Shown here one piece after another: positions 2,616 through 3,858 of a DNA stretch of 7,330 nucleotides; position 1 is the first letter of the stretch; each line of letters opens with the position of its first letter. Under the pieces are notes generated by a model that was given only the letters and a program-made list of their open reading frames with translations, did no database searches and was not told where the DNA came from. The translations under genes and the position numbers were made by a program. Origin of the DNA: a virus. Its lineage: Duplodnaviria > Heunggongvirae > Uroviricota > Caudoviricetes. The stretch lies in IMG/VR virus record IMGVR_UViG_2706794691_000001, one strand, 5' to 3'.

Positions 2616-3858
2616 TCTCGATGTCCTCGTCGGTAATGGATGCCCCGATGCCGGTTACGTCAGAATTTTCTCGCAAATCAGTCATAGCGGCTTTCAGTGT
2701 CATCAGACCATCACCCAGCGCCGTACTGATTGCGTTGGTGGNNNNNNNNNNNNNNNNNNNNNNNNNNNNNNNNNNNNNNNNNNNNNNNNNNNNNNNNNNN
2801 NNNNNNNNNNNNNNNNNNNNNNNNNNNNNNNNNNNNNNNNNNNNNNNNNNNNNNNNNNNNNNNNNNNNNNNNNNNNNNNNNNNNNNNNNNNNNNNNNNNN
2901 NNNNNNNNNNNNNNNNNNNNNNNNNNNNNNNNNNNNNNNNNNNNNNNNNNNNNNNNNNNNNNNNNNNNNNNNNNNNNNNNNNNNNNNNNNNNNNNNNNNN
3001 NNNNNNNNNNNNNNNNNGCCACTAATCTGTTCTACAAACTGCGAAAGGATGTCATCCAGACCACTGAAGCTGTACTGATGGGTTTCAAACTTATCCCGCG
3101 AGTCCATGAGCGTCATGCCTTCATTACTCTGGAACTGTCGAATCAGGTCGATATTCTTCAGCAACGCTTCATACGCAGGACCACCAAGTGCGATAAGCTC
3201 GCGTAGCTTCTCCACGCTGTAGGTACGCAAATGCGCCTTGTAGACCAGCTGCGCCGCGCCGACAGTAGCGCTGTCGAACGCGGTAAGACGATCCCAGATA
3301 CGCTCTACAACCGACATTCCCCATTCGTTCTCGGTCATCTTCTGCTGAAATGGCAACGTGACGCCATCAAAGCGAATCAGGCGACTGTGATGAATGCGCC
3401 AGGCAGGAATTCCCNNNNNNNNNNNNNNNNNNNNNNNNNNNNNNNNNNNNNNNNNNNNNNNNNNNNNNNNNNNNNNNNNNNNNNNNNNNNNNNNNNNNNN
3501 NNNNNNNNNNNNNNNNNNNNNNNNNNNNNNNNNNNNNNNNNNNNNNNNNNNNNNNNNNNNNNNNNNNNTCATCCAGTTGTGATTCGAGAATGCCACGATC
3601 TTTTGCATCAATTTCCGAAGTGATGCGAATGCCTTTGCGGGTCATATCATCCGGGATAGCATCGACTGCTTCGCCGATGATCTAGGATGAACGATAGGAC
3701 CATTCCACCAGCATGCGGTTACGACTGGTGAAATTAGCCCGGTAGGTGGATGCTGAGTGCTGGTTAGGTGTCTGCATCCCTACGCGGGCAATAAAATTCT
3801 CATAACCATCAGCTGTGGCCTGCACAGTTCGCCGCAGGGCTTGTTTGTTTCGTGCCAT
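2467..3858 (-). CDS. Phage portal protein, disrupted as given: in-frame TAG at 3684..3682, two N runs, and a frame change across each N run. Possible pseudogene or assembly artefact.
   Basis: ATG at 3858..3856 overlaps the terL stop (minus strand TGATG). First segment translates MARNKQALRRTVQATADGYENFIARVGMQTPNQHSASTYRANFTSRNRMLVEWSYRSS, then TAG, then IIGEAVDAIPDDMTRKGIRITSEIDAKDRGILESQLD in the same frame. Middle segment 3018..3414 is a clean 132-codon portal-like reading (...MDSRDKFETHQYSFSGLDDILSQFVEQISG) but in a different frame. An acidic tail (TDEDIENAEDEAPPGIGEPDDEPQEP) ends at TGA 2469..2467, in the same frame as the start. Alternative 3' end at 2703 if the N-run lengths are exact. 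Confidence 0.65.
2742..3017. other. Run of 276 N (assembly gap or masked sequence) inside the portal gene.
   Basis: Literal n characters at 2742..3017. Confidence 0.99.
3415..3568. other. Run of 154 N (assembly gap or masked sequence) inside the portal gene.
   Basis: Literal n characters at 3415..3568. Confidence 0.99.

Follow-up and report, generated by a model that had tools for sequence, protein, structure and literature searches.

The portal gene in this stretch of viral DNA is interrupted after 58 codons by an in-frame amber codon, a real, inherited nonsense mutation of Trp59, and is very probably a pseudogene in an IS1-truncated cryptic prophage remnant in the Shigella sonnei chromosome that has undergone ordinary decay. 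The window (the whole stretch of DNA analyzed, 7,330 nucleotides, with position 1 as its first letter) is best read as the lysis, terminase and head late-gene segment of a cryptic lambdoid-type prophage remnant. A G-to-A transition has changed the Trp59 codon from TGG to TAG, and the same gene carries a Gln126 amber and an A308V substitution. Translation would end after 58 residues, leaving the portal a pseudogene. IS1 has cost the element its major capsid gene and whatever lay beyond, and upstream, where the holin gene ends (3'), other insertion sequences are present.

On the minus strand, the junction between the gene for the large terminase subunit (terL) and the portal gene reads ...CAGGCCTGATGGCACGA..., in which the terL stop (TGA, 3860..3858) and the portal start (ATG, 3858..3856) have one base in common, forming TGATG at 3860..3856. 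The open reading frame at 3682..3858 (minus strand) encodes 58 amino acids and is terminated by TAG at 3684..3682; the N-terminal portal fragment, M1-S58, accordingly covers 3685..3858 (minus strand, 58 codons), its ATG overlapping the terL stop. Past TAG59 the portal frame goes on as IIGEAVDAIPDDMTRKGIRITSEIDAKD..., and the translation on both sides of the amber matches the intact 488-residue protein WP_000113499.1 residue for residue, the change from TGG (Trp59) to TAG being the sole exception. Direct reading and translation thus bear out the original prediction: the portal gene, which is coupled to terL, is broken by an in-frame TAG after 58 codons. Alignment to the best intact copy, from E. 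coli FDAARGOS_944 (L002), and to a gap-free contig (L006) places the whole portal pseudogene at 2467..3858 (minus strand). The true length of the gene is 1467 nt, and it is 75 nt shorter in the window due to runs of N.

Identification of the gene as a portal rests on position and domain content. By megablast, the region 3569-3900 is present in 375 of 5426 complete E. coli genomes, where the annotation gives a PBSX-family large terminase and, directly after it, a "DUF1073 domain-containing protein" or a "phage portal protein". In L002, terL (2640-4043) and the portal gene (4043-5509) show the identical one-base overlap. An intact 488-aa orthologue, differing from the window's portal by 3 nt, matches the Pfam family PF06381 (Phage_portal_3, DUF1073) with E = 3e-106 and 355 bits (cut-off 33.8) over residues 55-402, and PF06381 hits are also found on 54-aa and 360-aa fragments annotated in S. 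sonnei. The gene lies directly downstream of terL in a head-morphogenesis module, with Mu F-like, DUF2213 and cement genes next. An uninterrupted frame spanning the full domain is absent from the window's portal, which has stops at codons 59 and 126. On these sequence grounds, the gene is best classed as a pseudogene of the PF06381 family and not as a working member of it.

The naming of orthologues in RefSeq is inconsistent. Some of them (NZ_CP148474.1 (H8); P0034, P0036) are called "anti-CBASS protein Acb1 family protein", and identical or near-identical copies are called "DUF1073 domain-containing protein" or "phage portal protein". The Acb1 name for portal orthologues appears to be an annotation inconsistency.

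The ancestral state of codon 59 is TGG. The L002 copy is 99.8% identical to the S. sonnei sequence, with 13 differences in 7322 nt, and its codon 59 is TGG. Alignment of the window to L002 is ungapped around the site, and the altered base, window position 3683 (minus-strand A, plus-strand T), is the single difference within 332 nt. This agrees with the earlier proposal that one base of a sense codon had changed. The base is G in each of five further E. coli relatives, whose portal genes differ by 3 to 135 nt, and all six E. coli relatives have TGG at codon 59 and CAG at codon 126, making the S. sonnei alleles private. A 61-mer centered on the site matches 142 complete E. coli genomes; none of them has the TAG allele, and each shows exactly one mismatch. 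TAG59 is therefore a derived G-to-A transition in the codon for Trp59. Of the two ancestral codons first put forward, TGG (Trp) holds in the six E. coli relatives and CAG (Gln) does not apply to codon 59.

Trp59 is invariant across eight aligned portals with 24-72% identity, drawn from phages of Klebsiella, Acinetobacter, Burkholderia, Escherichia (flopper), Vibrio, Iodobacter and Agathobaculum, and comparison of the flanking peptides with these homologues gives Trp as the expected residue. Among proteins of known structure, the portal of cyanophage Pam3 (PDB 8hds), for which the dodecameric structure has been solved, is a homologue with E = 2e-37; Trp59 aligns with its Trp in "YRNSW", and the motif YRxSW is kept. 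The gp19 portal of phage E217 (8fvh) is also a homologue (E = 1e-14), and the further solved portals 9jlf and 9l01 match as well. The Pam3 and E217 portals are distant, and comparison with them serves only to place the N-terminal region and Trp59 in the conserved portal fold. The Pfam portal domain begins at residue 55. Among 113 matching phage records, 109 cover at least 80% of residues 1-140, with alignments typically beginning at residues 2-16. Homologous portals thus do not start at the downstream Met at 3645, an arrangement that had initially been considered.

Two runs of N interrupt the portal gene in the window. The first, at 3415..3568, has 154 N in place of 252 real bases (portal nt 291-542), and the second, at 2742..3017, has 276 N in place of 253 real bases (portal nt 940-1192), as judged by alignment to L002 and the gap-free contigs. 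Because these lengths are not true, the reading frame is not preserved across the runs, and two open reading frames that pass through them, 3367..3645 and 2703..3611 (both minus strand), are artefacts of the altered lengths. Translation of the unmasked portal gene reveals a second in-frame amber, Gln126 CAG to TAG, hidden within the first run. Under the second run, the unmasked stretch (2742-3017) has no further stop and no difference from L002. A third change private to S. sonnei, A308V (GCA to GTA), lies at 3034 (minus strand), as seen on comparing the unmasked translation with relatives. TAG59, TAG126 and A308V are all derived and were seen in S. sonnei-type sequences only. A reading of the N runs as the mark of a low-quality scaffold was ruled out by gap-free identical contigs and finished chromosomes.

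An exact 26-mer containing TAG59 is present in four IMG/VR contigs, which are free of Ns and match the window with 100% identity wherever it is not masked; one of them, L006, corresponds over its positions 1..7405 to 1..7330 of the window. The same search gave no match in GTDB representative genomes or JGI metagenome contigs. The TAG126 pattern was found in the same four IMG/VR contigs and was likewise absent from GTDB species-representative genomes and JGI metagenome contigs. Alleles with one amber alone were sought in IMG/VR and none was found, both patterns matching the same four contigs. The alleles are likely missing from the GTDB representatives because GTDB merges Shigella into E. coli, which leaves S. 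sonnei without a representative genome of its own.

The exact 58-aa product returns 2737 blocks in a gene-position index. Ten NCBI loci retrieved with it all carry the TAG base, and two of these, HE616528.1 and CP044191.1, are finished chromosomes. HE616528.1 is Shigella sonnei 53G (PMC5447701). Five of the ten loci, that of 53G among them, match all 7405 bases of the unmasked window with 100% identity, and the remaining five depart from it by one mismatch and/or a few indels. TAG59 is thus real and inherited, and it is present in many independent assemblies and in every S. sonnei sequence examined; the lineages covered individually are those represented by 53G, Ss046 and FORC_011. In S. sonnei genomes the portal is called as three open reading frames of 58, 54 and 360 aa, each named "putative bacteriophage protein [Shigella sonnei]" and each found on at least 1000 contigs. 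The named entries include FORC11_0741 and Q3Z426_SHISS, the organism code of the latter being taken here to denote strain Ss046. To judge from their sequences, the three are pieces of one dead portal gene.

The portal is flanked by genes that remain intact. Upstream, terL (3858..5261, minus strand) encodes a large terminase subunit of PBSX / Terminase_3 type (467 aa, PF04466). Downstream, all on the minus strand, are a Mu F-like head morphogenesis gene (1833..2576), which overlaps the portal 3' end by 110 nt, a DUF2213 head gene (609..1829) and a Gp24-like head cement or minor capsid gene (99..605). Beyond the cement gene the prophage is cut off. The sequence reads ...cgaATGA followed directly by GGTGATGCTGCC... 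(also written as GGTGATGCTGCCAACTTACTG...), and an intact copy reads at the same point ...cgaATGATTACTTTTGATCAG, the start of the DUF2184 major capsid gene. All that remains of the major capsid gene in the window is ATGA (84..87, minus strand), at the junction with an IS1 end that truncates the prophage (1..83, minus strand), and homology to L002 ends 4 nt into the DUF2184 gene. Beyond the window, the S. sonnei loci continue with InsA and the IS1 transposase (PF03811, PF12759, PF03400), and past IS1 lies chromosomal sequence with genes for a lactonase and a LysR regulator, then a further IS1 and an aconitase-family gene. The 83-nt IS1 end of the window recurs in inverted orientation at the second IS1, about 4 kb away. 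No capsid or tail genes were found past IS1 in these loci. Because the major capsid gene and everything beyond it have been lost to IS1, virions would not be formed, whatever the state of codon 59. The inducibility of the prophage, which the original prediction had seen as the matter at stake, is moot given the second portal amber and the loss to IS1 of the major capsid gene and all that follows.

At the other end of the remnant, an IS3-family element stands at the 3' end of the holin gene, upstream of the window. Strains of S. sonnei vary in this upstream region: some carry a Q antiterminator and a tRNA gene with a CAT anticodon (L011 2704-2777), then the IS3-family element, and others have there instead a cI-like HTH gene, a DUF1391 gene and an IS110-family element (L011 1960-6009 versus L007 1-6009). 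IS-mediated rearrangement thus appears, from these sequences, to be ongoing within S. sonnei.

Two genes near the lysis cassette have features of their own. A gene for a DedA / VTT-domain membrane protein (6171-6683, plus strand) is encoded opposite to its neighbors, with the lysis cassette on one side and the terminase genes on the other, a moron-like placement; it is intact in the window and in both E. coli FDAARGOS_943 (L001) and L002, and it is absent from four other relatives (L017-L020). The Rz-like lysis gene (6772-7242, minus strand) has five differences from the E. coli copy within 220 nt, four of which alter a residue (C18R, A60D, N74D and W91R, from L002 to S. sonnei). These differences are unpolarised, the outgroups carrying a different lysis cassette, and the cluster looks like a recombination patch or decay.

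Intact DUF1073 portals of E. coli prophages (WP_000113499.1, FDAARGOS_944) lie in the same gene order as in the window, that is, terL, portal, Mu F, DUF2213, cement and DUF2184 capsid, and the overlap of the terL stop and portal start is the same in the window and in the E. coli prophage copies. The window's copy is 99.8% identical in nucleotide sequence to the E. coli prophage and 94.5% identical to the vB_EcoM phages. The closest sequenced phages are Escherichia phage vB_EcoM-689R2 and its relatives, at 94.5%; next come Citrobacter phage Omnitron, Salmonella phage SEN34 and Hafnia phage yong1. Unlike the intact E. coli and phage portals, the window's copy has ambers at codons 59 and 126 and the A308V change, and its downstream capsid gene has been lost to IS1. 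Decay is also seen in E. coli: the copy whose portal gene comes nearest to that of S. sonnei, with 3 nt of difference, is that of FDAARGOS_943 (L001, 1304-6143), and it is itself defective, its terL being interrupted by IS2 and its Mu F-like gene by an internal stop.

A related remnant in Shigella dysenteriae Sd197 (CP000034, L021 7211-13482) shares the head module, and its portal is likewise dead; over the C-terminal 360 residues the two portals are 99% identical. Here an IS1 end is fused about 310 nt into the portal gene and the 5' end has been removed, with CAG126 intact. The DUF2213 gene is broken into pieces of 87 + 290 aa and the cement gene into pieces of 81 + 86 aa. The major capsid gene remains, and IS1 cuts the module further downstream. 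An alternative reading of the 360-aa fragment, as a TAG126 allele in common with S. sonnei, was ruled out by the IS1 junction and the intact CAG126 in the DNA. The decay of the Sd197 remnant is, on the evidence of these junctions and splits, independent of that in S. sonnei.

The distribution of substitutions raises the possibility that loss of the portal was selected. Of the 13 differences between S. sonnei and L002, four are common to other E. coli relatives, five lie in the Rz-like gene and one is synonymous in the DedA gene. In the head module of about 6 kb, the changes private to S. sonnei are three, all in the 1467-nt portal gene and all GC-to-AT, two of them nonsense and one missense. 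For random GC-to-AT changes on the module, the probability that at least two of three create a stop is 0.007, and the probability that all three fall in the portal is 0.017; the joint figure is about 0.01 after conditioning on one stop having drawn attention, for a statistic that is post hoc and based on three events. Such a pattern is somewhat improbable if decay was purely random and neutral. An orphan portal could be toxic or could trip a portal-sensing defence, such that repeated knock-outs would be favored over drift. The destruction of the portal in the related S. dysenteriae remnant points in the same direction and, if this explanation were true, its IS1 knock-out would be a parallel event. 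However, once a first stop has been made the gene is free to decay and nothing is won by a second one, a point against repeated selection; terL and the remaining head genes are still intact without an obvious function; and no defence system was identified. We consider selected loss unlikely and treat the clustering of the three changes as chance or as the result of an earlier loss of constraint. Under the preferred explanation of ordinary decay, the portal changes would have accumulated under relaxed constraint. GC-to-AT changes are the commonest class of spontaneous mutation. A double amber produced in the manner of chemical mutagenesis, which the fact that all three changes are GC-to-AT might suggest, was rejected for this reason and because the allele is found in natural S. 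sonnei isolates.

A second alternative is that translation restarts at a downstream Met, either M71 (window 3645) or M129, to yield a shortened functional or domesticated portal-derived protein. The 360-aa open reading frame from M129 to the natural stop is annotated by gene callers and still matches PF06381, and a 360-aa frame with the identical boundary is called in S. dysenteriae. From M71, however, the second amber is reached after 54 residues, and the product from M129 would be without residues 55-128 of the domain, including the invariant W59, W110, R112, L113, G115 and G125. The agreement with S. dysenteriae is coincidental, M129 being simply the next Met in a gene cut by IS1. A functional restart product is therefore very unlikely.

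Even less plausible is that the two TAGs are read as sense, through an amber suppressor tRNA of the host or phage or through recoding of the kind known in phages, to give a full-length portal. Both premature stops are amber, with no mix of stop types, as would be expected in that case. Yet amber is the outcome at 29 of the 51 stop-creating GC-to-AT sites of the portal (57%), and two ambers are thus unremarkable. The TAGs stand for two different residues, Trp and Gln, and no single suppressor restores both; in particular, neither supE nor supF would put back the invariant Trp at residue 59. TAG is found at neither site in any relative examined, and within the module in-frame TAG is confined to the portal, with terL and the Mu F, DUF2213 and cement genes intact. 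With the capsid and tail genes gone, a restored portal would also lack its assembly partners. ARAGORN detected no tRNA in the window; seven loci of 9.5-20 kb yielded no tRNA(CUA), the single tRNA type in them having the CAT anticodon. Laboratory amber (sus/am) mutants and TAG-recoding phages likewise have an in-frame TAG in a late structural gene, and the changes from TGG and from CAG to TAG are the transitions by which ambers classically arise. Unlike in those systems, no suppressor was found in the window and its flanks, the TAG is not conserved, two residues are replaced and the alleles occur in natural isolates.

As for a sequencing or assembly error over a true TGG codon and an intact portal, for which one single-base miscall would suffice and at which the N runs within the same gene at first hinted by suggesting a poor draft assembly, we give it practically no credence, since the same base stands in the four gap-free IMG/VR contigs and in at least 10 NCBI assemblies, including the two finished chromosomes, which excludes such an error, and since the exact truncated product lies on at least 1000 contigs and the linked second amber is common to all these sequences. 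Of the three options offered at the outset, the genuine nonsense mutation stands, sequencing error is eliminated by the many independent assemblies, and dependence on a suppressor is disfavored by the invariant Trp and by the finding of no tRNA(CUA) in the window or the 20-kb flanks.

Ordinary decay of a cryptic prophage, which would leave S. sonnei without a functional portal, also fits what is established for the genus. Degradation of Shigella genomes by deletions, nonsense mutations and IS expansion has been documented (Hawkey et al. 2020, PMC7373316), and the mechanisms described there are the same, with nonsense mutations and with insertions and deletions of the IS1, IS2 and IS600 type in a clonal, human-restricted lineage. 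That study treats chromosomal metabolic and virulence-related genes, and its main text does not use the word "prophage"; the case here is a gene of a cryptic prophage. The event is of a kind typical of degrading Shigella genomes.

There is little at stake beyond annotation, and the clustering of private changes in the portal is a small curiosity that would gain interest only with a larger sample showing preferential hits. The N runs call for caution with other windows that contain them, as the true length may be lost; here one run concealed a second stop. For S. sonnei, the annotation question is settled in that the three "putative bacteriophage protein" open reading frames belong to a single portal pseudogene, and the locus is best treated as a non-inducible prophage remnant.
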